From a virus (lineage: Duplodnaviria; Heunggongvirae; Uroviricota; Caudoviricetes), in the IMG/VR virus record IMGVR_UViG_2740892229_000004: a stretch of 11,421 bases of DNA, one strand, 5' to 3'. The notes beneath the pieces were generated by a model. The model saw only the letters and a list, made by a program, of their open reading frames with translations, made no database searches and was not told the origin of the DNA. Both the position numbers and the translations under genes were made by a program. This document shows positions 1 to 11,421 of the stretch, in pieces. Numbering within the stretch: the first letter of the stretch is position 1; each line of letters begins with the position of its first letter.

Positions 1-216
1 CAGAAGACGCAGATGCCGTCCATGAATGAAGCCGTTAAACAGATTGAGCAGGAAGTGCTTACCACCTGGCCCACGGAGGCAATTTCTCATGCTGAAAACG
101 TGGTGTACCGGCTGTCTGGTATGTATGAGTTTGTTGTGAATAATGCCCCTGAACAGACAGAGGTCGCCGGGCCCGCAGAGCCTGTTTCTGCGGGAAAGTG
201 TTCGACGGTGAGCTGA
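1..216 (+). CDS. G: Tail assembly chaperone gpG, C-terminal fragment (lambda-like allele; 5' end outside window)
   Basis: Frame 1 from position 1 reads QKTQMPSMNEAVKQIEQEVLTTWPTEAISHAENVVYRLSGMYEFVVNNAPEQTEVAGPAEPVSAGKCSTVS then stop, matching my recollection of the lambda gpG C-terminus. It is a second allele of the complete G at 1523..1945. Confidence 0.85.
   Translation, partial: QKTQMPSMNEAVKQIEQEVLTTWPTEAISHAENVVYRLSGMYEFVVNNAPEQTEVAGPAEPVSAGKCSTVS
192..198 (+). promoter_or_regulatory. Slippery heptamer G_GGA_AAG for the -1 programmed frameshift (G to G-T), copy 1
   Basis: GGGAAAG sits in the G frame (gcg gga aag) 6 codons before the G stop. The -1 frame continues as FDGELSFALKL (the T reading frame) until the gap at 235. 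Confidence 0.8.
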
Positions 217-244
217 GTTTTGCCCTGAAACTGGNNNNNNNNNN

Positions 245-574
245 CTTTTTGATGGTCGCCCCGCTGTTTTTGATGAGGAAGATTTTCCGGCAATTGCCGT
301 TTATCTCACCGGCGCTGAATACACGGGCGAAGAGCTGGACAGCGATACCTGGCAGGCGGAGCTGCATATTGAAGTTTTCCTGCCTGCTCAGGTGCCGGAT
401 TCAGAGCTGGATGCGTGGATGGAGTCCCGGATTTATCCGGTGATGAGCGATATCCCGGCACTGGCAGGACTGATTACCACGATGGTTACGCAGGGCTATG
501 AGTATCGTCGTGATGACGATATGGCGTTATGGAGTTCTGCAGATCTGACTTATTCCATTACATACGAGATGTGA
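245..574 (+). CDS. U: Tail terminator protein gpU, C-terminal part (5' end lost at gap 235..244)
   Basis: Translation [109 protein letters not shown] with stop at 572..574 matches lambda gpU with a few substitutions. Confidence 0.85.
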   Translation, partial: LFDGRPAVFDEEDFPAIAVYLTGAEYTGEELDSDTWQAELHIEVFLPAQVPDSELDAWMESRIYPVMSDIPALAGLITTMVTQGYEYRRDDDMALWSSADLTYSITYEM

Positions 575-581
575 GGACGAT

Positions 582-622
582 ATGGCAACACCAAATCCCC
601 TTGAGCCGGTAAAAGGTGCCGG
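582..622 (+). CDS. V: Major tail protein gpV, 5' fragment of a variant allele (MATPNPLEPVKGAG), cut by gap 623..632
   Basis: ATG at 582 lies 8 nt after the U stop and is preceded by GAGGA. The 14 codons parallel the V N-terminus ([14 protein letters not shown]) of the complete copy at 767. Confidence 0.6.
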
Positions 623-633
623 NNNNNNNNNNT

Positions 634-759
634 GATATCCCGGCACTGTCAGATTTGATCACCAGTATGGTGACCAGCGGCTATGACTATCGGCGCGACG
701 ATGATGCGGGCCTGTGGAGTTCAGCCGATCTGACTTATGTCATTACCTATGAAATGTGA
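634..759 (+). CDS. U: gpU C-terminal fragment, second allele
   Basis: Translation [41 protein letters not shown] with stop at 757..759 is the lambda-type gpU C-terminus. Confidence 0.8.
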
Positions 760-766
760 GGACGCT

Positions 767-1507
767 ATGCCTGTACCAAATCCTGTAATGCCGGTGAAAG
801 GGGCCGGGACCACCCTGTGGGTTTATAAGGGGAGTGGTGACCCTTATGCGAATCCGCTTTCAGACGTTGACTGGTCGCGTCTGGCAAAAGTTAAAGACCT
901 GACGCCCGGCGAACTGACCGCTGAGTCTTATGACGACAGCTATCTCGATGATGAAGATGCAGACTGGACTGCGACCGGGCAGGGGCAGAAATCTGCCGGA
1001 GATACCAGCTTCACGCTGGCGTGGATGCCCGGAGAGCAGGGGCAGCAGGCGCTGCTGGCGTGGTTTAATGAAGGCGATACCCGTGCCTATAAAATCCGCT
1101 TCCCGAACGGCACGGTCGATGTGTTCCGTGGCTGGGTCAGCAGTATCGGTAAGGCGGTGACGGCGAAGGAAGTGATTACCCGCACGGTGAAGGTCACCAA
1201 TGTGGGACGTCCGTCGATGGCAGAAGATCGCAGCACGGTGACGGCGACAACCGGCATGACGGTGACACCCGCCAGTGCTTCCGTAGTGAAAGGGCAGAGC
1301 ACCACGCTGACCGTGGCATTCCAGCCGGATGGCGCAACCGACAAGAGCTTCCGTGCGGTGTCTGCGGATAAAACAAAAGCCACCGTGTCGGTCAGTGGTA
1401 TGACCATCACCGTGAAAGGTGTTGCTGCAGGCAAGGTCAACATTCCGGTCGTATCCGGTAATGGTGAGTTTGCTGCGGTTGCAGAAATCAACGTCACCGC
1501 CAGTTAA
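767..1507 (+). CDS. V: Major tail tube protein gpV, complete (246 aa) with C-terminal Ig-like domain
   Basis: ATG at 767 is preceded by GAGGA at 758..762. The translation [36 protein letters not shown]...[18 protein letters not shown] is near-identical to lambda gpV as I recall it. The C-terminal third is Thr/Val/Ser-rich, typical of a Big_2 Ig-like domain. The track ORF 737..1507 begins at an upstream in-frame ATG inside the U tail, which I reject as the start. Confidence 0.95.
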
Positions 1508-1522
1508 TCCGGAGAGTCAGCG

Positions 1523-1945
1523 ATGTTCCTGAAAACCGAATCATTTGAACATAACGGTGTGACCGTCACGCTTTCTGAACTGTCAGCCCTGCAGCGTATT
1601 GAGCATCTCGCCCTGATGAAACGGCAGGCAGAACAGGCGGAGTCAGACAGCAACCGGAAGTTTACTGTGGAAGACGCCATCAGAACCGGCGCGTTTCTGG
1701 TGGCGATGTCCCTGTGGCATAACCATCCGAAGAAGACAAAGCTGCCTTCCATGAATGAAGCCGTTAAACAGATTGAGCAGGAAGTGCTTACCACCTGGCC
1801 CACAGAGGCAATTTCTCATGCTGAAAACGTGGTGTACCGGCTGTCCGGTATGTATGAGTTTGTGGTGACTGATGCTCCTGAACAGGCAGAGGACGCCGGG
1901 CCTGCAGAGCCTGTTTCTGCGGGAAAGTGTTCGACGGTGAGCTGA
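1523..1945 (+). CDS. G: Tail assembly chaperone gpG, complete (140 aa)
   Basis: ATG at 1523 is preceded by GGAGAG at 1511..1516. Translation MFLKTESFEHNGVTVTLSELSALQRIEHLALMKRQAEQAESDSNRKFTVEDAIRTGAFLVAMSLWHNHP... matches lambda gpG. The C-terminal region differs from the fragment at 1..216 (VTDAPEQAED versus VNNAPEQTEV). Confidence 0.95.
   Translation: MFLKTESFEHNGVTVTLSELSALQRIEHLALMKRQAEQAESDSNRKFTVEDAIRTGAFLVAMSLWHNHPKKTKLPSMNEAVKQIEQEVLTTWPTEAISHAENVVYRLSGMYEFVVTDAPEQAEDAGPAEPVSAGKCSTVS
1921..1927 (+). promoter_or_regulatory. Slippery heptamer G_GGA_AAG for the -1 programmed frameshift producing gpG-T, copy 2
   Basis: The heptamer is in the G zero frame (gcg 1919..1921, gga 1922..1924, aag 1925..1927). 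The -1 frame is open from here to 2361 and encodes the T sequence. Confidence 0.85.
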
Positions 1946-2361
1946 GTTTTGCCCTGAAACTGGCGCGTGAGATGGGGCGACCCGACTGGCGCGCCATGCT
2001 TGCCGGGATGTCATCCACGGAGTATGCCGACTGGCACCGCTTTTACAGTACCCATTATTTTCATGATGTTCTGCTGGATATGCACTTTTCCGGGCTGACG
2101 TACACTGTGCTCAGCCTGTTTTTCAGCGATCCGGAGATGCATCCGCTGGATTTCAGTCTGCTGAACCGGCGCGAGGCTGACGAAGAGCCTGAAGATGATG
2201 TGCTGATGCAGAAAGCGGCAGGGCTTGCCGGAGGTGTCCGCTTTGGCCCGGACGGGAATGAAGTTATCCCTACTTCCCCGGATGTGGCGGACATGACGGA
2301 GGATGACGTAATGCTGATGACAGTATCAGAAGGGATCGCAGGAGGAGTCCGGTATGGCTGA
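1927..2361 (+). CDS. T: gpT reading frame, expressed as the C-terminal extension of the G-T fusion chaperone by -1 frameshift from G
   Basis: The -1 frame relative to G reads FDGELSFALKLAREMGRPDWRAMLAGMSSTEYADWHRFYSTHYFHDVLLDMHFSGLTYTVLSLFFSDPEMHPLDFSLLNRREADEEPEDDVLMQKAAGL... with stop at 2359..2361. It has no independent start or ribosome-binding site and overlaps the H start. Confidence 0.9.
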   Translation: MFDGELSFALKLAREMGRPDWRAMLAGMSSTEYADWHRFYSTHYFHDVLLDMHFSGLTYTVLSLFFSDPEMHPLDFSLLNRREADEEPEDDVLMQKAAGLAGGVRFGPDGNEVIPTSPDVADMTEDDVMLMTVSEGIAGGVRYG

Positions 2362-3025
2362 ACCGGTAGGCGATCTGGTCGTTGATTTAAGTCTGGATGC
2401 GGCCAGATTTGACGAGCAGATGGCCAGAGTCAGGCGTCATTTTTCCGGTACGGAAAGTGATGCGAAAAAAACAGCGGCAGTCGTTGAACAGTCGCTGAGC
2501 CGACAGGCACTGGCTGCACAGAAAGCGGGGATTTCCGTCGGGCAGTATAAAGCCGCCATGCGTATGCTGCCTGCACAGTTCACCGACGTGGCCACGCAGC
2601 TTGCAGGCGGGCAAAGTCCGTGGCTGATCCTGCTGCAACAGGGTGGTCAGGTTAAGGACTCCTTCGGCGGGATGATCCCCATGTTCAGGGGGCTTGCCGG
2701 TGCGATCACCCTGCCGATGGTGGGGGCCACCTCGCTGGCGGTGGCGACCGGTGCGCTGGCGTATGCCTGGTATCAGGGCAACTCAACCCTGTCCGATTTC
2801 AACAAAACGCTGGTCCTTTCCGGCAATCAGGCGGGACTGACGGCAGATCGTATGCTGGTCCTGTCCAGAGCCGGGCAGGCGGCAGGGCTGACGTTTAACC
2901 AGACCAGCGAGTCACTCAGCGCACTGGTTAAGGCGGGGGTAAGCGGTGAGGCTCAGATTGCGTCCATCAGCCAGAGTGTGGCGCGTTTCTCCTCTGCATC
3001 CGGCGTGGAGGTGGACAAGGTCGCT
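2354..3025 (+). CDS. H: Tape measure protein gpH, N-terminal part (cut by gap 3026..3035)
   Basis: ATG at 2354 is preceded by GGAGG at 2341..2345. Translation MAEPVGDLVVDLSLDAARFDEQMARVRRHFSGTESDAKK...ASISQSVARFSSASGVEVDKVA matches the lambda gpH N-terminus, including a hydrophobic stretch GLAGAITLPMVGATSLAVATGALAYAW. Confidence 0.92.
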
Positions 3026-3035
3026 NNNNNNNNNN

Positions 3036-3144
3036 GACGGCCCTGGTGAATGCCGGTGTGCGTGGTGGTGAGCAGTTTGAGGCGATCAGCCAGAGTGTGG
3101 CGCGTTTCTCCTCTGCATCCGGCGTGGAGGTGGACAAGGTCGCT
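3036..3144 (+). CDS. H: gpH fragment, alternative allele of the segment ending ...SQSVARFSSASGVEVDKVA
   Basis: Reads TALVNAGVRGGEQFEAISQSVARFSSASGVEVDKVA, against SALVKAGVSGEAQIASISQSVARFSSASGVEVDKVA in the preceding fragment. It is bounded by N10 runs on both sides. Confidence 0.75.
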
Positions 3145-3154
3145 NNNNNNNNNN

Positions 3155-3262
3155 TTGTCCGATTTCAACAAAACGCTGGCCCTTTCCGGCAATCAGTCGG
3201 GGCTGACGGCAGATCGTATGCTGGTCCTGTCCAGAGCCGGGCAGGCGGCAGGGCTGACGTTT
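3155..3262 (+). CDS. H: gpH fragment, alternative allele of the segment LSDFNKTL(V/A)LSGNQ(A/S)GLTADRMLVLSRAGQAAGLTF
   Basis: Reads LSDFNKTLALSGNQSGLTADRMLVLSRAGQAAGLTF. The same segment occurs at about 2797..2896 with V and A at the variable positions. Confidence 0.75.
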
Positions 3263-3272
3263 NNNNNNNNNN

Positions 3273-3838
3273 ACTGACAGCGATGGCACGTCAGTTCCAT
3301 AACGTGACGGCGGAGCAGATTGCGTATGTTGCTCAGTTGCAGCGTTCCGGAGATGAAGCCGGGGCATTGCAGGCGGCGAACGAGGCCGCAACGAAAGGGT
3401 TTGATGACCAGACCCGCCGCCTGAAAGAGAACATGGGCACGCTGGAGACCTGGGCAGACAGGACTGCGCGGGCCTTCAAATCCATGTGGGATGCGGTGCT
3501 GGATATTGGTCGTCCTGATACCGCGCAGGAGATGCTGATTAAGGCAGAGGCTGCGTTTAAGAAAGCAGACGACATCTGGAATCTGCGCAAGGATGATTAT
3601 TTTGTTAACGATGAAGCGCGGGCGCGTTACTGGGATGATCGTGAAAAGGCCCGTCTTGCGCTTGAAGCCGCCCGAAAGAAGGCTGAGCAGCAGACTCAAC
3701 AGGACAAAAATGCGCAGCAGCAGAGCGATACCGAAGCGTCACGGCTGAAATATACCGAAGAGGCGCAGAAGGCTTACGAACGGCTGCAGACGCCGCTGGA
3801 GAAATATACCGCCCGTCAGGAAGAACTGAACAAGGCAC
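3273..3838 (+). CDS. H: gpH internal fragment (lambda-type allele, alpha-helical coiled-coil region)
   Basis: Reads LTAMARQFHNVTAEQIAYVAQLQRSGDEAGALQAANEAATKGFDDQTRRLKENMGTLETWADRTARAFKSMWDAVLDIGRPDTAQEMLIKAEAAFKKADDIWNLRKDDYFVNDEARARYWDDREKARLALEAARKKAEQQTQQDKNAQQQSDTEASRLKYTEEAQKAYERLQTPLEKYTARQEELNKA, matching lambda gpH. Confidence 0.88.
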
Positions 3839-3848
3839 NNNNNNNNNN

Positions 3849-4855
3849 AGCACGGGCATTCAAATCCATGTGGGATTCGGTGTTGGATATTGGTCGCCCG
3901 GACACTGCCCAGGGAATGCTGGAGAAAGCAGAAAAGGCTTTTGATGAGGCGGACAAAAAATGGCAGTGGTATCAGAGCCGGAGCCACCGGCGCGGTAAAA
4001 CCTCAGCATTTCTTGCCAATCTCCGGGGAGCATGGGAGGACAGAGCGAATGCGCAACTTGGGCTTTCAGCCGCCACGTTGCAGGCCGATCTTGAAAAGGC
4101 CAGAGAGATGGCAGCAAAGGACTGGGCCGAGTCTGAGGCATCACGGCTGAAATATACCGAAGAGGCGCAGAAGGCTTACAAACGGCTGCAGACGCCGCTG
4201 GAGAAATATACCGCCCGTCAGGAAGAACTGAACAAGGCACTGAAAGACGGGAAAATCCTGCAGGCGGATTACAACACGCTGATGGCGGCGGCGAAAAAGG
4301 ATTATGAAGCGACGCTGAAAAAGCCGAAACAGTCCGGCGTGAAGGTGTCTGCGGGCGATCGTCAGGAAGACAGTGCTCATGCTGCCCTGCTGACGCTTCA
4401 GGCAGAACTCCGGACGCTGGAGAAGCATGCCGGAGCAAATGAGAAAATCAGCCAGCAGCGCCGGGATTTGTGGAAGGCGGAGAGTCAGTTCGCGGTACTG
4501 GAGGAGGCGGCGCAACGTCGCCAGCTGTCTGCACAGGAGAAATCCCTGCTGGCGCATAAAGATGAGACGCTGGAGTACAAACGCCAGCTGGCTGCACTTG
4601 GCGACAAGGTTACGTATCAGGAGCGCCTGAACGCGCTGGCGCAGCAGGCGGATAAATTCGCACAGCAGCAACGGGCAAAACGGGCCGCCATTGATGCGAA
4701 AAGCCGGGGGCTGACTGACCGGCAGGCAGAACGGGAAGCCACGGAACAGCGCCTGAAGGAACAGTATGGCGATAATCCGCTGGCGCTGAATAACGTCATG
4801 TCAGAGCAGAAAAAGACCTGGGCGGCTGAAGACCAGCTTCGCGGGAGCTGGATGG
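3849..4855 (+). CDS. H: gpH internal fragment: its first ~290 nt are a divergent allele of 3463..3838, then it continues into the downstream coiled-coil region
   Basis: Begins ARAFKSMWDSVLDIGRPDTAQGMLEKAEKAFDEADKKWQWYQSRSHRRGKTSAFLANLRGAWEDRANAQLGLSAATLQADLEKAREMAAKDWAESEASRLKYTEEAQKAYKRLQTPLEKYTARQEELNKALKDGKILQADYNTLMAAAKK... and runs to ...MSEQKKTWAAEDQLRGSWM. The flanks are conserved and the central cassette is divergent relative to the previous fragment. Confidence 0.88.
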
Positions 4856-4865
4856 NNNNNNNNNN

Positions 4866-4926
4866 ATCATGTCAGAGCAGAAAAAGACCTGGGCGGCTGA
4901 AGACCAGCTTCGCGGGAACTGGATGG
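4866..4926 (+). CDS. H: gpH 61-nt fragment, single-codon variant (RGNWM versus RGSWM) of the end of the previous fragment
   Basis: Reads IMSEQKKTWAAEDQLRGNWM and is near-identical to 4795..4855. Confidence 0.7.
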
Positions 4927-4936
4927 NNNNNNNNNN

Positions 4937-5302
4937 GCAGCAGCAGGGCGCGAAGCAGGCGGCAATCAGTGCCCAGGCGCGGGGCCTCACCGACCGTCAG
5001 GCGCAGCGGGAGTCGGAAGAGCAGCGCCTTCGTGACGTGTACGGTGATAATCCGGCTGCGCTGGCGAAGGCCACATCGGCACTGAAGAACACCTGGTCTG
5101 CGGAGGAGCAGCTTCGTGGAAGCTGGATGGCCGGGCTGAAGTCCGGCTGGGGCGAGTGGGCGGAAAGTGCGACGGACAGTTTTTCGCAGGTTAAAAGCGT
5201 GGCCACGCAGACCTTTGACGGTATTGCACAGAATATGGCGGTGATGCTGACCGGCAGTGAACAGAACTGGCGCAGCTTCACCCGCTCCGTGCTGTCCATG
5301 AT
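4937..5302 (+). CDS. H: gpH internal fragment, strongly diverged allele of the region covered by ~4670..4855 and 5313..5482
   Basis: Reads QQQGAKQAAISAQARGLTDRQAQRESEEQRLRDVYGDNPAALAKATSALKNTWSAEEQLRGSWMAGLKSGWGEWAESATDSFSQVKSVATQTFDGIAQNMAVMLTGSEQNWRSFTRSVLSM. Its counterpart in the neighbouring fragments is QQQRAKRAAIDAKSRGLTDRQAEREATEQRLKEQYGDNPLALNNVMSEQKKTWAAEDQLRG(S/N)WM then AGLKSGWSEWEESATDSMSQVKSAATQ... Confidence 0.82.
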
Positions 5303-5312
5303 NNNNNNNNNN

Positions 5313-5854
5313 CAGGCCTGAAGTCCGGCTGGAGTGAGTGGGAAGAGAGCGCCACGGACAGTATGTCGCAGGTAAAAAGTGCAGCCACGCAGACCTTTGA
5401 TGGTATTGCACAGAATATGGCAGCGATGCTGACCGGCAGTGAGCAGAACTGGCGCAGCTTCACCCGTTCCGTGCTGTCCATGATGACAGAAATTCTGCTT
5501 AAGCAGGCAATGGTGGGGATTGTCGGGAGTATCGGCAGCGCCATTGGCGGGGCTGTTGGTGGCGGCGCATCCGCGTCAGGTGGTACAGCCATTCAGGCCG
5601 CTGCGGCGAAATTCCATTTTGCAACCGGGGGATTTACGGGAACCGGCGGCAAATATGAGCCAGCGGGGATTGTTCACCGTGGTGAATTTGTCTTCACGAA
5701 GGAGGCAACCAGCCGGATTGGCGTGGGGAATCTCTACCGGCTGATGCGCGGCTATGCCACCGGTGGTTATGTCGGTACACCGGGCAGTCTGGCTGACAGC
5801 CGGTCGCAGGCGTCCGGGACGTTTGAGCAGAATAACCATGTGGTGATTAACAAC
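5313..5854 (+). CDS. H: gpH fragment: hydrophobic Gly/Ala-rich segment and distal region
   Basis: Reads GLKSGWSEWEESATDSMSQVKSAATQTFDGIAQNMAAMLTGSEQNWRSFTRSVLSMMTEILLKQAMVGIVGSIGSAIGGAVGGGASASGGTAIQAAAAKFHFATGGFTGTGGKYEPAGIVHRGEFVFTKEATSRIGVGNLYRLMRGYATGGYVGTPGSLADSRSQASGTFEQNNHVVINN, matching lambda gpH. Confidence 0.88.
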
Positions 5855-5864
5855 NNNNNNNNNN

Positions 5865-5925
5865 GACCGGGGGATTTACGGGAACCGGCGGCAAATATGA
5901 GCCAGCGGGGATTGTTCACCGTGGT
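5865..5925 (+). CDS. H: gpH 61-nt fragment duplicating 5626..5686 (TGGFTGTGGKYEPAGIVHRG)
   Basis: Identical to the corresponding stretch of the previous fragment except for its first base. Bounded by N10 runs on both sides. Confidence 0.7.
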
Positions 5926-5935
5926 NNNNNNNNNN

Positions 5936-6233
5936 GTTTGTCTTCACGAAGGAGGCAACCAGCCGGATTGGCGTGGGGAATCTTTACCGGCTGATGCGCG
6001 GCTATGCCACCGGCGGTTATGTCGGTACACCGGGCAGCATGGCAGACAGCCGGTCGCAGGCGTCCGGGACGTTTGAGCAGAATAACCATGTGGTGATTAA
6101 CAACGACGGCACGAACGGGCAGATAGGTCCGGCTGCTCTGAAGGCGGTGTATGACATGGCCCGCAAGGGTGCCCGTGATGAAATTCAGACACAGATGCGT
6201 GATGGTGGCCTGTTCTCCGGAGGTGGACGATGA
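5936..6233 (+). CDS. H: gpH C-terminal end, allele 1 (stop at 6231..6233)
   Basis: Reads FVFTKEATSRIGVGNLYRLMRGYATGGYVGTPGSMADSRSQASGTFEQNNHVVINNDGTNGQIGPAALKAVYDMARKGARDEIQTQMRDGGLFSGGGR then stop, matching the lambda gpH C-terminus. The stop overlaps the M start as ATGA. Confidence 0.92.
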
Positions 6234-6379
6234 AGACCTTCCGCTGGAAAGTGAAACCCGGTATGGATGTGGCTTCGGTCCCTTCTGTAAGAAAGGTGCG
6301 CTTTGGTGATGGCTATTCTCAGCGAGCGCCTGCCGGGCTGAATGCCAACCTGAAAACGTACAGCGTGACGCTTTCTGTC
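6230..6379 (+). CDS. M: Tail tip assembly protein gpM, 5' part of copy 1 (cut by gap 6380..6389)
   Basis: Reads MKTFRWKVKPGMDVASVPSVRKVRFGDGYSQRAPAGLNANLKTYSVTLSV, matching the lambda gpM N-terminus. Confidence 0.88.
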
Positions 6380-6389
6380 NNNNNNNNNN

Positions 6390-6750
6390 AACCGGAGGAT
6401 TTACGGGAACCGGCGGCAAATATGAGCCAGCGGGGATTGTTCACCGTGGTGAATTTGTCTTCACGAAGGAGGCAACCAGCCGGATTGGTGTCGGCAACCT
6501 GTACCGCCTGATGCGGGGCTATGCGGAAGGTGGTTATGTGGGCGGTGCCGGAAGTCCGGCGCAGATGCGGCGGGCTGAAGGCATTAATTTTAATCAGAAC
6601 AATCACGTGGTGATTCAGAACGACGGTACGAATGGTCTGCCAGGTCCACAGATGATGAAGGCGGTGTATGACATGGCCCGCAAGGGTGCCCGTGATGAAA
6701 TCCAGGCACAGATGCGCGATGGTGGTCTGTTCTCCGGAGGTGGACGATGA
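6390..6750 (+). CDS. H: gpH C-terminal end, allele 2 (diverged distal segment)
   Basis: Reads TGGFTGTGGKYEPAGIVHRGEFVFTKEATSRIGVGNLYRLMRGYAEGGYVGGAGSPAQMRRAEGINFNQNNHVVIQNDGTNGLPGPQMMKAVYDMARKGARDEIQAQMRDGGLFSGGGR then stop. The region GYAEGGYVGGAGSPAQMRRAEGINFNQ ... LPGPQMM differs from allele 1 (GYATGGYVGTPGSMADSRSQASGTFEQ ... QIGPAAL). Confidence 0.88.
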
Positions 6751-7076
6751 AAACCTTCCGCTGGAAAGTGAAACCCGGTATGGATGTGGCTTCGGCCCCT
6801 TCTGTAAGAAAGGTGCGCTTTGGTGATGGCTATTCCCAGCGAGCGCCTGCCGGGCTGAATGCCAACCTGAAAACGTACAGCGTGACGCTTTCTGTCCCCC
6901 GTGAGGAGGCCACGGTACTGGAGTCGTTTCTGGAAGAGCACGGGGGCTGGAAAGCCTTTCTGTGGACGCCGCCTTATGAGTGGCGGCAGATAAAGGTGAC
7001 CTGCGCAAAATGGTCGTCGCGGGTCAGTATGTTGCGTGTTGAGTTCAGCGCAGAGTTTGAACAGGTGGTGAACTGA
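6747..7076 (+). CDS. M: Tail tip assembly protein gpM, complete (109 aa)
   Basis: Reads MKTFRWKVKPGMDVASAPSVRKVRFGDGYSQRAPAGLNANLKTYSVTLSVPREEATVLESFLEEHGGWKAFLWTPPYEWRQIKVTCAKWSSRVSMLRVEFSAEFEQVVN, matching lambda gpM. Its start overlaps the H stop (ATGA) and its stop overlaps the L start (TGATG). Confidence 0.95.
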   Translation: MKTFRWKVKPGMDVASAPSVRKVRFGDGYSQRAPAGLNANLKTYSVTLSVPREEATVLESFLEEHGGWKAFLWTPPYEWRQIKVTCAKWSSRVSMLRVEFSAEFEQVVN

Positions 7077-7461
7077 TGCAGGATATCCGACAGGAAACAC
7101 TGAATGAATGCACCCGTGCGGAGCAGTCTGCCAGCGTGGTGCTCTGGGAAATCGATCTGACAGAGGTTGGTGGAGAACGTTATTTTTTCTGTAATGAGCA
7201 GAACGAAAAAGGTGAGCCGGTCACCTGGCAGGGGCGACAGTATCAGGCGTATCCCATTCAGGGGAGTGTTTCGAACTGAATGGCAAAGGCACCAGTACGC
7301 GCCCCACGCTGACGGTTTCTAACCTGTATGGCATGGTCACCGGGATGGCGGAAGATCTGCAGAGTCTGGTCGGCGGAACGGTGGTCAGGCGTAAGGTTTA
7401 TGCCCGTTTTCTGGATGCGGTGAACTTCGTCAACGGAAACAGCGACGCCGATCCGGAGCAG
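7076..7461 (+). pseudogene. L: gpL copy 1, disrupted by a 1-nt deletion near 7268 (in-frame stop at 7277..7279); the remainder is L sequence in another frame up to gap 7462
   Basis: Reads MQDIRQETLNECTRAEQSASVVLWEIDLTEVGGERYFFCNEQNEKGEPVTWQGRQYQAYPIQGSVSN then stop. Copy 2 has ggggagtggttttgaactg where copy 1 has ggggagtgtttcgaactg, one base shorter. Downstream of the deletion the +1 frame encodes NGKGTSTRPTLTVSNLYGMVTGMAEDLQSLVGGTVVRRKVYARFLDAVNFVNGNSDADPEQ, which is genuine L sequence. Confidence 0.75.
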
Positions 7462-7471
7462 NNNNNNNNNN

Positions 7472-7516
7472 CTGCGTGTTGAGTTCAGCGCAGAGTTTGA
7501 ACAGGTGGTGAACTGA
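7472..7516 (+). CDS. M: gpM 3' terminal fragment (LRVEFSAEFEQVVN, stop 7514..7516)
   Basis: Near-identical to 7031..7076. Followed directly by the L start. Confidence 0.75.
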   Translation: MRVEFSAEFEQVVN

Positions 7517-8088
7517 TGCAGGATATCCGGCAGGAAACACTGAATGAATGCACCCGTGCGGAGCAGTCGGCCAGCGTGGTGCTCTGGGAAATCGACCTGA
7601 CAGAGGTCGGTGGAGAACGTTATTTTTTCTGTAATGAGCAGAACGAAAAAGGTGAGCCGGTCACCTGGCAGGGGCGACAGTATCAGCCGTATCCCATTCA
7701 GGGGAGTGGTTTTGAACTGAATGGCAAAGGCACCAGTACGCGCCCCACGCTGACGGTTTCTAACCTGTACGGTATGGTCACCGGGATGGCGGAAGATCTG
7801 CAGAGTCTGGTCGGCGGAACGGTGGTCCGGCGTAAGGTTTACGCCCGTTTTCTGGATGCGGTGAACTTCGTCAACGGAAACAGCGACGCCGATCCGGAGC
7901 AGGAGGTGATCAGCCGCTGGCGCATCGAGCAGTGCAGCGAACTGAGCGCGGTCAGTGCTTCCTTTGTGCTCTCCACACCGACGGAAACGGATGGTGCCGT
8001 TTTTCCGGGCCGCATCATGCTGGCTAATACCTGCACCTGGACCTATCGCGGCGATGAGTGCGGTTATCACGGTCCGGCGGTCGCGGAT
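7516..8088 (+). CDS. L: Tail tip assembly protein gpL, copy 2, intact frame for 191 codons (3' end cut by gap 8089..8098)
   Basis: Reads MQDIRQETLNECTRAEQSASVVLWEIDLTEVGGERYFFCNEQNEKGEPVTWQGRQYQPYPIQGSGFELNGKGTSTRPTLTVSNLYGMVTGMAEDLQSLVGGTVVRRKVYARFLDAVNFVNGNSDADPEQEVISRWRIEQCSELSAVSASFVLSTPTETDGAVFPGRIMLANTCTWTYRGDECGYHGPAVAD, matching lambda gpL. Confidence 0.92.
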
Positions 8089-8098
8089 NNNNNNNNNN

Positions 8099-8402
8099 TA
8101 GCCGCTGGCGCATCGAGCAGTGCAGCGAACTGAGCGCGGTGAGTGCCTCTTTTGTACTGTCCACGCCGACTGAAACGGATGGTGCCGTTTTTCCGGGGCG
8201 CATCATGCTGGCTAATACCTGCACCTGGACCTATCGCGGTGATGAGTGCGGTTATCACGGTCCGGCGGTCGCGGATGAATATGACCAGCCGATGTCCGAT
8301 ATCACGAAGGATAAATGCAGCAAATGCCTGAGCGGCTGTAAGTTCCGCAATAACGTCGTCAACTTTGGCGGCTTCCTTTCCATTAACAAACTTTCGCAGT
8401 AA
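8099..8402 (+). CDS. L: gpL C-terminal fragment with stop (Cys-rich C-terminus CSKCLSGCKF)
   Basis: Reads SRWRIEQCSELSAVSASFVLSTPTETDGAVFPGRIMLANTCTWTYRGDECGYHGPAVADEYDQPMSDITKDKCSKCLSGCKFRNNVVNFGGFLSINKLSQ then stop at 8400..8402. It is followed by ATG at 8408 (MTQT...), cut by gap 8420. Confidence 0.88.
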
Positions 8403-8429
8403 ATCCCATGACACAGACANNNNNNNNNN

Positions 8430-8555
8430 GAATATGACCAGCCAACGTCCGATATCACGAAGGATAAATGCAGCAAATGCCTGAGTGGCTGTAAGTTTCG
8501 CAATAACGTCGGCAACTTTGGCGGCTTCCTTTCCATTAACAAACTTTCGCAGTAA
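8430..8555 (+). CDS. L: gpL 3' terminal fragment, allele with PTSD and NVGNF
   Basis: Reads EYDQPTSDITKDKCSKCLSGCKFRNNVGNFGGFLSINKLSQ then stop at 8553..8555. Confidence 0.8.
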   Translation, partial: EYDQPTSDITKDKCSKCLSGCKFRNNVGNFGGFLSINKLSQ

Positions 8556-8559
8556 TCCC

Positions 8560-8626
8560 ATGACAGAGACAGAATCAGCGATTCTGGCGCACGCCCGGCG
8601 ATGTGCGCCAGCGGAGTCGTGCGGCT
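8560..8626 (+). CDS. K: gpK long-form N-terminal fragment (MTETESAILAHARRCAPAESCG), cut by gap
   Basis: ATG lies 4 nt after the L stop and the frame is open to the gap. It is a variant (T-E) of the MTQTESAILAHARRCAPAESCG start seen at 8712. Confidence 0.65.
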
Positions 8627-8636
8627 NNNNNNNNNN

Positions 8637-8706
8637 CGGTTGTAAGTTCCGCAATAACGTCGGCAACTTTGGCGGCTTCCTTTCCATTAACAAACTTTCG
8701 CAGTAA
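8637..8706 (+). CDS. L: gpL 3' terminal fragment (third copy)
   Basis: Reads GCKFRNNVGNFGGFLSINKLSQ then stop at 8704..8706. Confidence 0.75.
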
Positions 8707-8711
8707 ATCCC

Positions 8712-8778
8712 ATGACACAGACAGAATCAGCGATTCTGGCGCACGCCCGGCGATGTGCGCCAGCGGAGTCGTGCGGCT
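8712..8778 (+). CDS. K: gpK long-form N-terminal fragment (MTQTESAILAHARRCAPAESCG), cut by gap 8779..8788
   Basis: ATG lies 5 nt after the L stop. The sequence is open and in the same codon phase as the K body at 9055..9711, although the stretch between them is an inserted L fragment and a gap. Confidence 0.65.
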
Positions 8779-8789
8779 NNNNNNNNNNT

Positions 8790-9044
8790 TATGCCGATCC
8801 GGAGCAGGAGGTGATCAGCCGCTGGCGCATTGAGCAGTGCAGCGAACTGAGCGCGGTGAGTGCCTCCTTTGTACTGTCCACGCCGACGGAAACGGATGGC
8901 GCTGTTTTTCCGGGACGTATCATGCTGGCCAACACCTGCACCTGGACCTATCGCGGTGACGAGTGCGGTTATAGCGGTCCGGCTGTCGCGGATGAATATG
9001 ACCAGCCAACGTCCGATATCACGAAGGATAAATGCAGCAAATGC
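8790..9044 (+). CDS. L: gpL internal-to-C-terminal fragment (another copy, with GYSGPAVAD)
   Basis: Reads YADPEQEVISRWRIEQCSELSAVSASFVLSTPTETDGAVFPGRIMLANTCTWTYRGDECGYSGPAVADEYDQPTSDITKDKCSKC. It is placed out of genomic order between K fragments. Confidence 0.82.
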
Positions 9045-9054
9045 NNNNNNNNNN

Positions 9055-9711
9055 CGGGAAAGATATTTCCCCTGCGTGAATATCTCCGGTGAGCCGGAGG
9101 CGTATTTCCGGATGGCTCCGGAGGACTGGCTGCGGGCAGAAATGCAGGGTGAGATTGTGGCGCTGGTCCACAGTCACCCCGGTGCTCTGCCCTGGCTGAG
9201 TGAGGCCGACCGGCGGCTGCAGGTGCAGAGTGATTTGCCGTGGTGGCTGGTCTGCCGGGGGGCGATTCACAAGTTCCGCTGTGTGCCACATCTTACCGGG
9301 CGGCGCTTTGAGCACGGGGTGACGGACTGTTACACGCTGTTCCGGGATGCTTACCATCTGGCGGGAATTGAGATGCCTGATTTTCATCGTGAGGATGACT
9401 GGTGGCGTCACGGTCAGAATCTCTATCTGGATAATCTGGAGGCCACAGGGCTGTATCAGGTGCCGTTGTCAGCGGCGCAGCCGGGCGATGTGCTGCTGTG
9501 CTGTTTTGGTTCATCGGTGCCGAATCATGCCGCCATTTACTGCGGCGACGGCGAGCTGTTGCACCATATTCCTGAACAACTGAGCAAACGAGAGAGGTAT
9601 ACAGACAAATGGCAGCGACGCACACACTCCCTCTGGCGTCACCGGGCATGGCACGCATCTGCCTTTACGGGGATTTACAACGATTTGGCCGCCGCATCGA
9701 CCTTCGTGTGA
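9055..9711 (+). CDS. K: Tail tip assembly protein gpK (MPN/JAMM-like plus NlpC/P60-like), 5' end interrupted by gap; conventional 199-aa start would be the ATG at 9112
   Basis: Reads ...GERYFPCVNISGEPEAYFRMAPEDWLRAEMQGEIVALVHSHPGALPWLSEADRRLQVQSDLPWWLVCRGAIHKFRCVPHLTGRRFEHGVTDCYTLFRDAYHLAGIEMPDFHREDDWWRHGQNLYLDNLEATGLYQVPLSAAQPGDVLLCCFGSSVPNHAAIYCGDGELLHHIPEQLSKRERYTDKWQRRTHSLWRHRAWHASAFTGIYNDLAAASTFV then stop. A JAMM-type H-x-H-x7-S-x2-D motif lies at 9169..9210. The Cys (DCY) and His (NHAAIY) fit an NlpC/P60 arrangement. The 3' end overlaps I by 103 nt. Confidence 0.9.
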   Translation, partial: RERYFPCVNISGEPEAYFRMAPEDWLRAEMQGEIVALVHSHPGALPWLSEADRRLQVQSDLPWWLVCRGAIHKFRCVPHLTGRRFEHGVTDCYTLFRDAYHLAGIEMPDFHREDDWWRHGQNLYLDNLEATGLYQVPLSAAQPGDVLLCCFGSSVPNHAAIYCGDGELLHHIPEQLSKRERYTDKWQRRTHSLWRHRAWHASAFTGIYNDLAAASTFV

Positions 9712-10250
9712 AAACGGGGGCCGAAGCCATCCGGGCGCTGGCCACGCAGCTTCCGTCGTTTCGCCAGAAACTGAATGAGGGCTGGTATCAGGTGCGCATT
9801 GCCGGGCGTGATGCAGGCGAAAATGAATTATCAGCCCGTCTTAATGAACCGCTGGCAAATGGTGCTGTGATCCATATCGTGCCGCGTCTGGCAGGAGCCA
9901 AAAGTGGCGGTGTGTTTCAGGCTGTGCTGGGGGCGGCTGTTATGGCGGTTGCTATATGGATGCCGGGGGTAGGAATTATGGCGAGTAATCTGCTGTTTTC
10001 TCTCGGTGCCAGTATGACGCTTGGCGGTGTTGCACAGATGCTGGCCCCTAAACCCAAAACTCCCCGTACACAGACAACGGATAACGGCAAACAGAACACC
10101 TATTTTTCTTCACTGGATAATATGGTTGCCCAGGGCAATGTCCTGCCCGTTCTGTACGGTGAAATGCGTGTGGGGTCGCGGGTGGTATCTCAGGAGATCA
10201 GCACAGCAGATGAAGGGGATGGTGGTCAGGTTGTGGTGATTGGTCGCTGA
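9609..10250 (+). CDS. I: Tail tip assembly protein gpI, complete (213 aa)
   Basis: Reads MAATHTLPLASPGMARICLYGDLQRFGRRIDLRVKTGAEAIRALATQLPSFRQKLNEGWYQVRIAGRDAGEN...TPRTQTTDNGKQNTYFSSLDNMVAQGNVLPVLYGEMRVGSRVVSQEISTADEGDGGQVVVIGR then stop. It matches lambda gpI at both ends and has a hydrophobic middle segment. The start is embedded in the 3' end of K in another frame. Confidence 0.93.
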   Translation: MAATHTLPLASPGMARICLYGDLQRFGRRIDLRVKTGAEAIRALATQLPSFRQKLNEGWYQVRIAGRDAGENELSARLNEPLANGAVIHIVPRLAGAKSGGVFQAVLGAAVMAVAIWMPGVGIMASNLLFSLGASMTLGGVAQMLAPKPKTPRTQTTDNGKQNTYFSSLDNMVAQGNVLPVLYGEMRVGSRVVSQEISTADEGDGGQVVVIGR

Positions 10251-10290
10251 TGCAAAATGTTTTATGTGAAACCGCCTGCGNNNNNNNNNN

Positions 10291-10474
10291 CACACAGACA
10301 ACGGATAACGGCAAACAGAACACCTATTTTTCTTCACTGGATAATATGGTTGCCCAGGGCAATGTTCTGCCCGTTCTGTACGGTGAAATGCGCGTGGGAT
10401 CACGTGTGGTTTCTCAGGAGATCAGCACAGCAGATGAAGGTGATGGTGGTCAGGTTGTGGTGATTGGTCGCTGA
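10291..10474 (+). CDS. I: gpI C-terminal fragment (second copy, synonymous and near-synonymous differences)
   Basis: Reads TQTTDNGKQNTYFSSLDNMVAQGNVLPVLYGEMRVGSRVVSQEISTADEGDGGQVVVIGR then stop at 10472..10474. Confidence 0.85.
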
Positions 10475-10492
10475 TGAAAAACGTTTTATGTG

Positions 10493-10520
10493 AAACCGCC
10501 TTCGGGCGGTTTTATCGTTT
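10493..10520 (+). terminator. Stem-loop AAACCGCC-TTCG-GGCGGTTT followed by a T-rich tract, in the I-J intergenic region
   Basis: An 8-bp perfect inverted repeat (10493..10500 and 10505..10512) encloses a TTCG tetraloop and is followed by TTATCGTTT. It lies 15 nt upstream of the J ribosome-binding site GGAG. The first half of the same element is present at 10264..10280 before a gap. Confidence 0.45.
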
Positions 10521-10534
10521 ATGGAGCATGACGA

Positions 10535-10820
10535 ATGGGTAAAGGCAGCAGTAAGGGGCATACCCCGCGCGAAGCGAAGGACAACCTGAAGTCCACGCAG
10601 CTGCTGAGTGTGATCGATGCCATCAGCGAAGGGCCGGTTGAAGGTCCGGTGGATGGATTAAAAAGCGTGCTGCTGAACAGTACGCCGGTGCTGGACAGTG
10701 AGGGGAATACCAATATATCCGGCGTCACGGTGGTGTTCCGGGCCGGTGAGCAGGAGCAGTCACCGCCGGAGGGATTTGAATCCTCCGGCTCCGAGACGGT
10801 GCTGGGTACGGAAGTGAAAT
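10535..10820 (+). CDS. J: Central tail fiber / tip attachment protein gpJ, N-terminal part (cut by gap 10821..10830)
   Basis: ATG at 10535 is preceded by GGAG at 10523..10526. Reads MGKGSSKGHTPREAKDNLKSTQLLSVIDAISEGPVEGPVDGLKSVLLNSTPVLDSEGNTNISGVTVVFRAGEQEQSPPEGFESSGSETVLGTEVK, matching the lambda gpJ N-terminus. Confidence 0.92.
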
Positions 10821-10830
10821 NNNNNNNNNN

Positions 10831-11226
10831 CAGCAGTAAGGGGCATACCCCGCGCGAAGCGAAGGACAACCTGAAATCATCCCAGATGCTGAGCGTGATA
10901 GACGCCATCAGTGAAGGGCCGGTTGAAGGTCCGGTGGATGGATTAAAAAGCGTGCTGCTGAACAGTACGCCGGTGCTGGACAGTGAGGGGAATACCAACA
11001 TCGCCGGTGTCACGGTGGTGTTCCGGGCTGGTGAGCAGGAGCAGACTCCGCCGGAGGGATTTGAATCCTCCGGCTCCGAGACGGTGCTGGGTACGGAAGT
11101 GAAATACGACACGCCGATCACCCGGACCATCACGTCGGCAAACATTGACCGACTGCGTTTTACCTTCGGTGTGCAGGCACTGGTGGAAACCACCTCAAAG
11201 GGGGACAGGAATCCATCGGAAGTCCG
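10831..11226 (+). CDS. J: gpJ N-terminal region fragment, second allele
   Basis: Reads SSKGHTPREAKDNLKSSQMLSVIDAISEGPVEGPVDGLKSVLLNSTPVLDSEGNTNIAGVTVVFRAGEQEQTPPEGFESSGSETVLGTEVKYDTPITRTITSANIDRLRFTFGVQALVETTSKGDRNPSEVRL. Differs from 10535..10820 at a few codons (STQLL/SSQML, ISG/IAG, SPP/TPP). Confidence 0.88.
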
Positions 11227-11236
11227 CCTGNNNNNN

Positions 11237-11421
11237 NNNNGACCATCACGTCGGCAAACATTGACCGTCTGCGTTTTACTTTCGGCGTGCAGGCACTGGT
11301 GGAAACCACCTCAAAGGGGGACAGGAATCCATCGGAAGTCCGCCTGCTGGTTCAGATACAACGTAACGGTGGCTGGGTGACGGAAAAAGACATCACCATT
11401 AAGGGTAAAACCACTTCACAG
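11237..11421 (+). CDS. J: gpJ fragment continuing to the window end (3' end outside window)
   Basis: The frame starting at 11238 reads TITSANIDRLRFTFGVQALVETTSKGDRNPSEVRLLVQIQRNGGWVTEKDITIKGKTTSQ, matching lambda gpJ. The track ORF 10535..11380 crosses this fragment in a different, spurious frame. Confidence 0.88.

Follow-up and report, generated by a model that had tools for sequence, protein, structure and literature searches.

Collapsed-repeat bubbles are an established feature of short-read assemblies of Escherichia coli genomes that carry several lambdoid prophages. In the corresponding de Bruijn graphs, identical stretches collapse and differing ones split into short allele-specific nodes, and most assemblers break contigs there. 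The window analysed here, a stretch of 11,421 nt, instead strings such nodes together with fixed 10-N gaps. It is byte-identical to the entire NCBI WGS record CCPP01000122.1, which is part of the draft assembly of an E. coli isolate (GCA_000752895.1). Since the record belongs to an isolate assembly, an E. coli genome with several prophages is favoured over a metagenome, two sources that the preliminary description had left side by side. The window is not a single real piece of DNA but a draft-assembly scaffold where lambda-type tail genes stand in series in alternative versions, an ordinary artefact without biological novelty.

A letter scan bore out the count of 21 runs of exactly 10 N separating 22 fragments (F1 to F22), and no other ambiguous base was present. 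The runs start at 235, 623, 3026, 3145, 3263, 3839, 4856, 4927, 5303, 5855, 5926, 6380, 7462, 8089, 8420, 8627, 8779, 9045, 10281, 10821, and 11231; the positions given for the first 20 in the preliminary description were exact, but the last run had been placed at 11227. The fragments are listed below with their window coordinates, strand, lambda coordinates, and allele type, together with their relations to one another and to a local panel of prophages (handles beginning with L). Type B denotes the ABWA45/2013C-4991 type.

F1, 1 to 234, + strand: lambda 9918-10151, gpG aa 70-140 and gpT start, lambda-type allele; 99.1% identical to lambda and 94.4% to F3, to whose positions 1099-1331 it is the alternative; last 60 nt equal to F3 1272-1331.
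F2, 245 to 622, + strand: lambda 8618-8995, gpU aa 23-131 and start of the V region, divergent allele; only 88-89% identical to lambda and to each panel prophage; overlaps the F3 start (77% to F3 2-175).
F3, 633 to 3025, + strand: lambda 8821-11213, U end, V, G, T, and gpH aa 1-224, the longest fragment; first ~1235 nt of type B (exact 1235-nt run with L002 from the start), last 372 nt lambda-type (exact 372-nt run with lambda); best match L029, 99.7%.
F4, 3036 to 3144, + strand: lambda 11105-11213, gpH aa 189-224, B-type alternative to the F3 end; 100% to L027; last 60 nt the same as those of F3.
F5, 3155 to 3262, + strand: lambda 10977-11084, gpH aa 146-181, alternative to F3 2158-2264 (97.2% identical); first base T versus C in F3 and six references; last 60 nt equal to F3 2205-2264.
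F6, 3273 to 3838, + strand: lambda 11252-11817, gpH aa 238-425, lambda-type allele; 98.8% to lambda; last 60 nt equal to F7 333-392.
F7, 3849 to 4855, + strand: lambda 11444-12432, gpH aa 302-630, B-type with an H variant longer by 18 nt; 99.8% to L027 and 99.9% to L033.
F8, 4866 to 4926, + strand: lambda 12372-12432, 61 nt, B-type arm standing against the final 61 nt of F7, with A for G at its first base; 100% to L027 8944-9004; shares an exact run of 60 nt with lambda.
F9, 4937 to 5302, + strand: approximately lambda 12239-12604, a diverged cassette of type C over gpH aa 567-687; ~80% to lambda; identical at 366/366 positions to both L007 and L037 (the prophage at 2.10 Mb in 2013C-4991); matched at 100% in only 8 of 5,426 complete genomes.
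F10, 5313 to 5854, + strand: lambda 12433-12974, gpH aa 632-811, lambda-like allele; 98.3% to lambda, with 99.6% the highest identity in complete genomes; its first position directly follows the ends of F7 and F8 (9004|9005 on L027); last 60 nt equal to F12 110-169.
F11, 5865 to 5925, + strand: lambda 12743-12803, 61 nt, single-SNP bubble arm; G at position 1 where F10 has A, then identity with F10 312-371 over positions 2-61; 100% to L027.
F12, 5936 to 6379, + strand: lambda 12806-13249, gpH aa 756-853 and gpM aa 1-50, lambda allele; 444/444 to lambda; last 60 nt equal to F13 448-507.
F13, 6390 to 7461, + strand: lambda 12743-13815, H end, complete M, and gpL aa 1-129, B-type allele; 99.7% to L027 and 99.9% to L029 and L031.
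F14, 7472 to 8088, + strand: lambda 13385-14001, M end and gpL aa 1-191, D-type allele; 617/617 to L038 (the 14EC017 prophage beside ydfJ) and 97.4% to F13 644-1072.
F15, 8099 to 8419, + strand: lambda 13824-14144, gpL aa 133-232, B-type L-end copy; 100% to L027; last 60 nt equal to F17 28-87.
F16, 8430 to 8626, + strand: lambda 14002-14199, C-type L-end copy; 197/197 to L037; starts exactly at the F14 end, abutting on L037 at 15763|15764; last 60 nt the same as those of F17.
F17, 8637 to 8778, + strand: lambda 14058-14199, lambda-type L-end copy; 142/142 to lambda.
F18, 8789 to 9044, + strand: lambda 13797-14052, gpL aa 124-208, lambda-type, out of order after F17; 99.6% to lambda; 51-nt exact suffix-prefix overlap with F16.
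F19, 9055 to 10280, + strand: lambda 14220-15474, complete K and I genes, D-like allele; 86.5% to lambda; at best 99.1% in the 5,426 complete genomes; 11 differences from L038.
F20, 10291 to 10820, + strand: lambda 15261-15790, I end and gpJ aa 1-95, B-type allele; positions 2-530 100% to L027; first base C versus T in F19.
F21, 10831 to 11230, + strand: lambda 15516-15915, gpJ aa 5-137, C-type allele; 400/400 to L037; last 60 nt equal to F22 47-106.
F22, 11241 to 11421, + strand: lambda 15810-15990, gpJ aa 103-162, B-type, end of the record; 181/181 to L027.

Gene content was assigned to each fragment by tblastn with lambda proteins, and the repeated segments named in the preliminary description were recovered: the L end occurs three times (F15, F16, and F17), the H C-terminus and the M start twice each (both in F12 and F13), as do the L start (F13 and F14), the G end (F1 and F3), the U end (F2 and F3), and the I end (F19 and F20). 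Of the two J starts, the repetition of the N-terminal gpJ region stood (F20 and F21), but a start codon is present only in F20; part of that region also recurs in F22. All fragments read in frame as a tail gene with zero stop codons, and third codon positions account for 56% of their differences from lambda, indicating that the variants are real alleles rather than sequencing errors. In F13, a 1-nt deletion near 7268 cuts L to 67 aa, and 28 contigs are recorded with an identical 67-aa product, including a 5.37-Mb chromosome; among the matches listed is the complete genome CP027355.1. Many "partial" gpL proteins from draft assemblies are also on record. Among the public gene calls for the record, 9 of 22 cross an N10. 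Gene order and any open reading frame that crosses an N run are therefore artefacts, as the preliminary description had cautioned.

When the fragments were aligned to lambda and to prophages, a check that the preliminary description had proposed, all 22 piled up on the + strand of one tail-module stretch, lambda 8618-15990 (7,373 nt, genes U to J). Depth over this interval is 1 for 4,032 nt, 2 for 2,657 nt, and 3 for 626 nt, and the positions absent from the window (11214-11251 and 14200-14219) together amount to 58 nt. Projected on lambda, the implied distance is negative at 18 of the 21 junctions (−61 to −1534 nt), the later fragment beginning upstream of the end of the earlier one, which agrees with the claim that flanking fragments are not colinear. 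The 10-N run is a placeholder, whatever the true distance. Neighbouring fragments are indeed alternative alleles, but not always simple pairs, because the allele type switches along F3 itself.

The fragment boundaries carry the k−1 = 60 nt signature of a de Bruijn graph with k = 61. Seventeen of the 22 fragments close on a 60-nt stretch that recurs letter for letter in a sibling fragment or a public prophage, and the opening base is polymorphic in 17 of the 22; interior control positions satisfied the end rule at 1.0% and the start rule at 5.5% (P ~5e-30 and 7e-18, respectively). Furthermore, the fragments have 27 maximal exact matches with one another, and 11 of these measure exactly 60 nt and lie at a fragment end. 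For the ends of F2, F7, F14, F18, and F22, no exact 60-nt run was found in the panel used. This signature explains the two 61-nt fragments that had been pointed out (4866-4926 and 5865-5925), both of which have the length of a single-SNP arm; F11 fits such an arm exactly, whereas F8 fits only against an allele absent from the window. The two differences between F7 and L027 appear to be the two sites at which F8 departs from the last 61 nt of F7. Four fragment pairs have exact runs longer than 60 nt in common (74-92 nt), which are barred in a raw unitig graph; the nodes must therefore have been lengthened once the graph had been built.

Taken together, we consider it very likely that the window is a k = 61 assembly-bubble scaffold of several lambdoid prophage tail modules in an E. 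coli isolate. The collapsed or bubble paths proposed in the preliminary description are supported by the boundary signature, by the pile-up, and by the occurrence of the exact alleles as separate prophages. The source strain would carry at least three, and probably four, lambdoid prophages, whose U-V-G-T-H-M-L-K-I-J modules are mutually 80-100% identical and whose alleles are interleaved here. In the graph, stretches common to the prophages would collapse to single nodes and each difference would open a bubble; a fragment would then be the last nucleotides of the successive k-mers in one node, written from the variant base after a fork to 60 nt beyond the last variant before the merge. Paired-end scaffolding presumably did the ordering. 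The scaffolder would set allele-specific nodes by estimated position, making alternative alleles of one segment neighbours, and every join would be written as the minimum of 10 N because the estimated distances were negative or tiny. The lack of a 100% match for F3, F10, and F19 in 5,426 complete genomes suggests that some fragments may not be true alleles but walks that switch haplotype.

The alleles probably occur together in the source strain itself. The same picture would come from at least two E. coli strains, with one or two lambdoid prophages each, in a mixed or contaminated culture or in a metagenome-like sample, and we regard such a source as improbable. The assembly artefact would be unchanged in that case, only the biological source of the haplotypes being different. 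All four allele types were seen together in no single complete genome, and the lambda-type F12 and F17 have the sequence of phage lambda itself (100% identity), which laboratory strains (J53, a K-12 and a B derivative) also carry without change. Other lambda-type fragments, however, are not lambda itself (F6 and F10), which argues against simple contamination with lambda DNA, and the record is an isolate assembly. Moreover, the exact B and C alleles occur in two prophages separated by ~540 kb on one complete chromosome, that of 2013C-4991, and the C and D alleles in two separate prophages of strain 14EC017. Several places per genome are the norm: 4,494 of 5,426 complete E. coli genomes had a match, with a median of 3 and a maximum of 13 places per matching genome.

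It is very doubtful that independent contigs were ordered and N10-joined by a later step, whether guided by lambda or a related genome or made during database processing or binning, rather than by the assembler's scaffolder. Fragment order does track lambda coordinates (Spearman 0.989), and a literature search for a program that writes fixed 10-N gaps found none. Yet free-standing de Bruijn contigs carry a shared 60-nt prefix, which these fragments, opening at the fork base, do not have; separate contigs as short as 61-142 nt are normally discarded; and the small inversions (F1 before F2, F4 before F5, and F18 after F17) suit noisy insert-size estimates better than a reference alignment. A real tandem array of partial, diverged tail-gene duplicates in one molecule, with short unsequenced gaps under the Ns, is close to refuted: nothing positive favours it, although adjacency across the Ns is beyond disproof by sequence alone; no recombination process would produce breakpoints with exact 60-nt ends and variant-base starts, all 21 gaps have the same length, the pieces fall on single ordinary ~7.36-kb modules in the 5,426 complete genomes, and such an array would break every tail gene, whereas an open frame is kept in each fragment.

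The bubble scaffold can finally be set beside the systems that it resembles. As in de Bruijn graphs of co-resident prophages, a node boundary lies k−1 = 60 nt past a variant, and where a SNP stands alone the arm is k nt long, as in F11. The window shares with the phage lambda tail module (J02459 8552-18903) its gene content, strand, and underlying order, at 80-100% nucleotide identity, and the GGGAAAG G-T frameshift site (window 192 in F1) is retained in both copies. It differs from lambda in being 1.5-fold redundant pieces of at least three modules, stopping at J aa 162, in missing 58 nt, and in having one allele with a frameshifted L gene. The complete genome of 2013C-4991 (NZ_CP027355.1) has a prophage at 2.64 Mb that is 100% identical to six fragments (F4, F8, F11, F15, F20, and F22), including the neighbourhood of the truncated gpL, and its prophage at 2.10 Mb is identical to three (F9, F16, and F21). 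In contrast, F1, F6, F10, F12, F14, F17, F18, and F19 are not exact to either of these two, so the source strain would be related to 2013C-4991 in prophage content without being identical, or else the differences reflect further 2013C-4991 prophages outside the comparison. Velvet scaffolds have a minimum gap of 10 N, and a node after a gap is written without its k−1 prefix. The window agrees with such output in its uniform 10-N gaps, an odd k (61), starts on fork bases, and ends in 60-nt shared suffixes; from this gap minimum and manner of node writing, the assembler was probably Velvet or a similar program.

It is virtually certain that the record is an assembly artefact and does not represent a single piece of real DNA. 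The window contains 21 N runs, each of exactly 10 N, and no other ambiguous base, and splitting it at these runs yielded 22 fragments of 61 to 2,393 nt (F1 to F22 in written order). The preliminary description had located 20 of the 21 runs exactly, the last one lying at 11231 rather than 11227, and the two fragments that it had given as 61 nt (4866-4926 and 5865-5925) have precisely that length. The window is byte-identical to the whole of CCPP01000122.1 (11,421 nt) in GCA_000752895.1, the NCBI draft assembly of an E. coli isolate. This record was reached through the rare 67-aa truncated gpL encoded at 7076-7279. Exact searches with gpV and gpI gave related prophages but missed the source, and a junction pattern of the window had no match in the viral, genome, and metagenome contig collections, none of which contains the source. 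An E. coli genome and a metagenome had both been considered as the source, and the former is favoured, since the record belongs to the draft assembly of an isolate. A literature search found no paper that mentions CCPP01 or GCA_000752895.1.

All 22 fragments mapped on the plus strand to lambda 8618-15990 at 80-100% identity (positions taken from BLAST coordinates), an interval comprising the tail module from gene U through the first 162 codons of J. Matches were obtained by tblastn for all ten lambda proteins, U, V, G, T, H, M, L, K, I, and J, in that order and on one strand, and every fragment was in frame without stop codons, with a 1-nt deletion in gene L of F13 as the sole exception. Pfam families detected on the gene calls of the record include Phage_tail_U, Phage_TTP_12, Phage_TAC_2, Phage_tail_T, Tape_meas_lam_C, Phage_min_tail, Phage_tail_L, NLPC_P60, and Lambda_tail_I, and the heptamer GGGAAAG of the programmed −1 frameshift between G and T occurs in each of the two copies, at window 192 in F1 and at window 1921 in F3. 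One fragment, F2 (window 245-622; gpU amino acids 23-131 and the U/V junction), is far more divergent than the others, showing 88-89% identity to lambda and to every fetched prophage.

The gene parts previously described as duplicated were all recovered by tblastn: the L end occurs three times, the ends of H, G, U, and I and the starts of M and L occur twice, and the J N terminus is represented by copies that overlap. Altogether, the 11,211 non-N bases cover just 7,373 nt of lambda coordinates, with a depth of 1 over 4,032 nt, 2 over 2,657 nt, and 3 over 626 nt, and with 58 nt uncovered. The fragments do not form a single continuous module with one copy per gene; instead, up to three alleles occupy a position and junction distances are negative. 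When 5,426 complete E. coli genomes were searched, the 22 pieces piled onto one interval of ~7.36 kb, and the 4,494 genomes with any match have a median of 3 and a maximum of 13 such places.

The fragment boundaries revealed a rule based on 60 nt. Among 27 maximal exact matches between fragments, 11 are exactly 60 nt long and located at a fragment end. The fragments were then compared with one another and with a small panel of public prophages that had already been picked when the source was identified. Every fifth interior position of these fragments served as a control. An exact 60-nt run to another allele, with a difference just before it, was found at 17 of the 22 fragment ends versus 19 of 1816 control positions (1.0%; binomial P = 5e-30). 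Likewise, the first base differed from a sibling or reference and was followed by matching sequence in 17 of the 22 fragments versus 5.5% of control positions (binomial P = 7e-18). In the 61-nt fragment F11, a single variant base is followed by 60 nt that equal F10 312-371. The other one, F8, has two differences from F7 and matches lambda exactly over a run of 60 nt; judged from its sequence, it could be the arm of a single SNP only if the alternative were an allele absent from the window. Pieces that would follow each other on a true path adjoin with no overlap: on L027, a prophage at 2.64 Mb in the genome of 2013C-4991 (NZ_CP027355.1), position 9004 is the last of both F7 and F8 and position 9005 the first of F10, while F14 ends at position 15763 of L037, a second prophage of that genome at 2.10 Mb, and F16 starts at 15764. 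The uncovered lambda stretches (11214-11251 and 14200-14219) fall between a merge and the next fork and would hold a short node common to all copies.

We propose that each piece is a node of a de Bruijn graph with k = 61, for which the final nucleotide of every k-mer would have been written out in turn. Such a node would open on the variant base after a fork and close 60 nt past the last variant before a merge, and an isolated SNP, spanned by 61 k-mers, would give an arm of 61 nt; the 61-nt fragments are explained by this rule, F11 directly and F8 less directly. A k of 31, as in Logan-type unitigs (2k−1 = 61), was rejected because common runs stop at 60 nt, not at 30. Exact runs of 74-92 nt occur in four pairs (F10/F13, F13/F14, F19/F20, and F20/F21), most other common runs stopping at 60 nt. 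Therefore, the pieces are probably not raw unitigs, and some of them would have been extended after graph construction; the longer runs are compatible with node extension during repeat resolution, unlike a raw unitig set.

Three to four alleles, or haplotypes of the lambda-type tail genes U to J, are interleaved in the window. Type A is lambda-like, with F12 (444/444) and F17 (142/142) identical to lambda and F18, F1, F6, and F10 matching it at 99.6%, 99.1%, 98.8%, and 98.3%, respectively. Type B corresponds to L027, which matches F4, F8, F11, F15, F20, and F22 at 100%, F7 at 99.8%, and F13 at 99.7%, whereas type C corresponds to L037 (F9, 366/366; F16, 197/197; F21, 400/400). Type D matches a 14EC017 prophage adjoining ydfJ (F14, 617/617; F19, 99.1%), and strain 14EC017 also carries type C elsewhere in its chromosome. 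F9 was found at 100% in just 8 of the 5,426 complete genomes, 2013C-4991 being the first among those listed. F12 is too common in complete genomes to be informative in a search for a genome with every allele. No complete genome with all alleles at 100% was found among the 5,426, the best matches being 99.1% for F19 and 99.6% for F10.

Exact copies of these alleles thus occur together in single related genomes, separated by hundreds of kilobases, and such co-residence is what an explanation by collapsed repeats requires. The competing view, that the alleles were contributed by a mixed culture and not by co-resident prophages, appears improbable to us. About the strain behind the window, the record tells only of the probable presence of three or more tail modules of the lambda type, one of them with a frameshift in L. 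As for its relatives, the C-type prophage has the type III effector genes nleB2, nleC, nleH1-1, and nleD just downstream of the tail fibre genes (L037 23157-27826, about 2087472-2092141 in NZ_CP027355.1), and these genes point to attaching-and-effacing E. coli as the group to which relatives of the source strain belong.

The way in which the pieces were joined was examined on lambda coordinates. Junction distances are negative at 18 of the 21 joins, from −61 to −1534 nt, and the other three are +2, +167, and +167; the gap is 10 N at all 21 joins, unrelated to the implied distance (−1534 to +167 nt). The N10 runs are placeholders. Exact suffix-prefix overlaps among fragments are almost absent, the only one being 51 nt between F18 and F16, and the fragments are therefore not ordinary overlapping contigs. 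Their order follows the midpoint position on lambda closely yet imperfectly (Spearman 0.989), with small inversions that put F1 before F2, F4 before F5, and F18 after F17. In the proposed mechanism, nodes would be ordered by noisy paired-end position estimates and then joined by a minimum gap of 10 N. The assembler may have been Velvet or a similar program, judging from Velvet's output conventions; a literature search for a Velvet "10 N" rule found no confirmation. There is only a slight chance that the pieces were instead joined by a later ordering step. A genuine tandem or segmental duplication, with the pieces arrayed in one molecule, can be all but dismissed, as it is contradicted by the 60-nt k-mer boundary rule, by the uniform N run at every join, and by complete genomes that contain single ordinary modules.

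Taken together, the 60-nt boundary rule, the uniform N10 gaps, and the co-residence of the alleles in related genomes support the earlier suggestion that the window consists of collapsed or bubble paths from several lambdoid tail modules. We consider it very probable that the whole chain holds, namely, that the record is a scaffold made by a de Bruijn assembler at k = 61 from the bubbles formed by three or more lambdoid tail modules residing in the same genome.

A few long fragments change allele type along their length. In F3, the first 1,235 nt are identical to the B-type reference and the last 372 nt to lambda, and the lambda-type F1 and the B-type F4 are the complementary alleles at these two places; F3 reflects either a haplotype switch inside the graph or reciprocal recombinants in the strain. 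Neither F19 (genes K and I; best match, 99.1%) nor F10 (best match, 99.6%) has an exact match in the 5,426 complete E. coli genomes. Compared with L002, an ABWA45-type prophage reference, F19 has 11 of its 14 differences in ~60 nt near the end of gene I, where the overlap with F20 begins. F3, F10, and F19 may be assembler walks that switched haplotype at stretches common to the alleles, or real recombinants. That the longer fragments are real recombinant alleles rather than assembler walks seems rather unlikely to us; were they real nonetheless, the record would document recent gene conversion among the tail modules of lambdoid prophages that share one strain.

The variants are natural alleles and not sequencing errors. 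Third codon positions account for 56% of the differences from lambda, there are more transitions (307) than transversions (220), and there is no adenine bias, since just 108 of 527 substitutions start from A; these properties, along with the kept slip site and the presence of the truncated L gene elsewhere on record, all argue for natural alleles. Programmed diversification by a diversity-generating retroelement or by invertible (shufflon) cassettes was rejected on the same substitution figures, and it is also disfavoured because the tail genes U to J, all on one strand, leave no part of any fragment unexplained.

In gene L of F13, a 1-nt deletion (GG to G) near 7268 cuts gpL to 67 amino acids, encoded at 7076-7279. 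The identical 67-aa gpL is on record for 28 contigs, the places shown including the complete chromosome of 2013C-4991, where the L027 prophage has the same truncated gene and the annotation splits L into ORFs of 67 and 146 aa. The truncated L is a real allele and not an assembly error, and it suggests a tail-defective prophage lineage. In the 90% cluster of this protein (581 members), the 14 others among the 15 entries listed all come from draft assemblies of E. coli and are annotated as "partial" phage minor tail protein L; hence, contigs very often break inside the tail module in other drafts too.

The warning that ORFs crossing N runs are unreliable was borne out by the stored annotation, in which 9 of 22 gene calls extend over one or more N10 runs:

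2354-3049, gene call crossing N10
3036-5085, gene call with a 679-aa product running through five spacers, made of two tape-measure alleles and out-of-frame pieces
5313-6076, gene call crossing N10
6230-6511, gene call crossing N10
7516-8133, gene call crossing N10
8067-8687, minus strand, gene call of 206 aa crossing N10
8712-9092, gene call crossing N10
10250-10474, gene call crossing N10
10535-11421, gene call crossing N10

Most of these calls have no Pfam hit, and they are artefactual proteins in public collections. The value of the record is practical, not biological: scaffolds of this kind are stored publicly as contiguous DNA, gene callers read across the 10-N spacers, and the resulting chimeras enter protein collections. 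The boundary rule provides a quick test that needs only the sequence, flags such scaffolds, and recovers k. In a scaffold of this kind, all gaps have the same floor length, fragment ends share k−1 bases with a sibling, fragment starts are a variant base, and the shortest fragments are k nt long. The record is useful solely as a caution and as an easy means of recognizing scaffolds of this type in public data; it holds no new biology, and the genes underlying it are ordinary tail genes of the lambda type.
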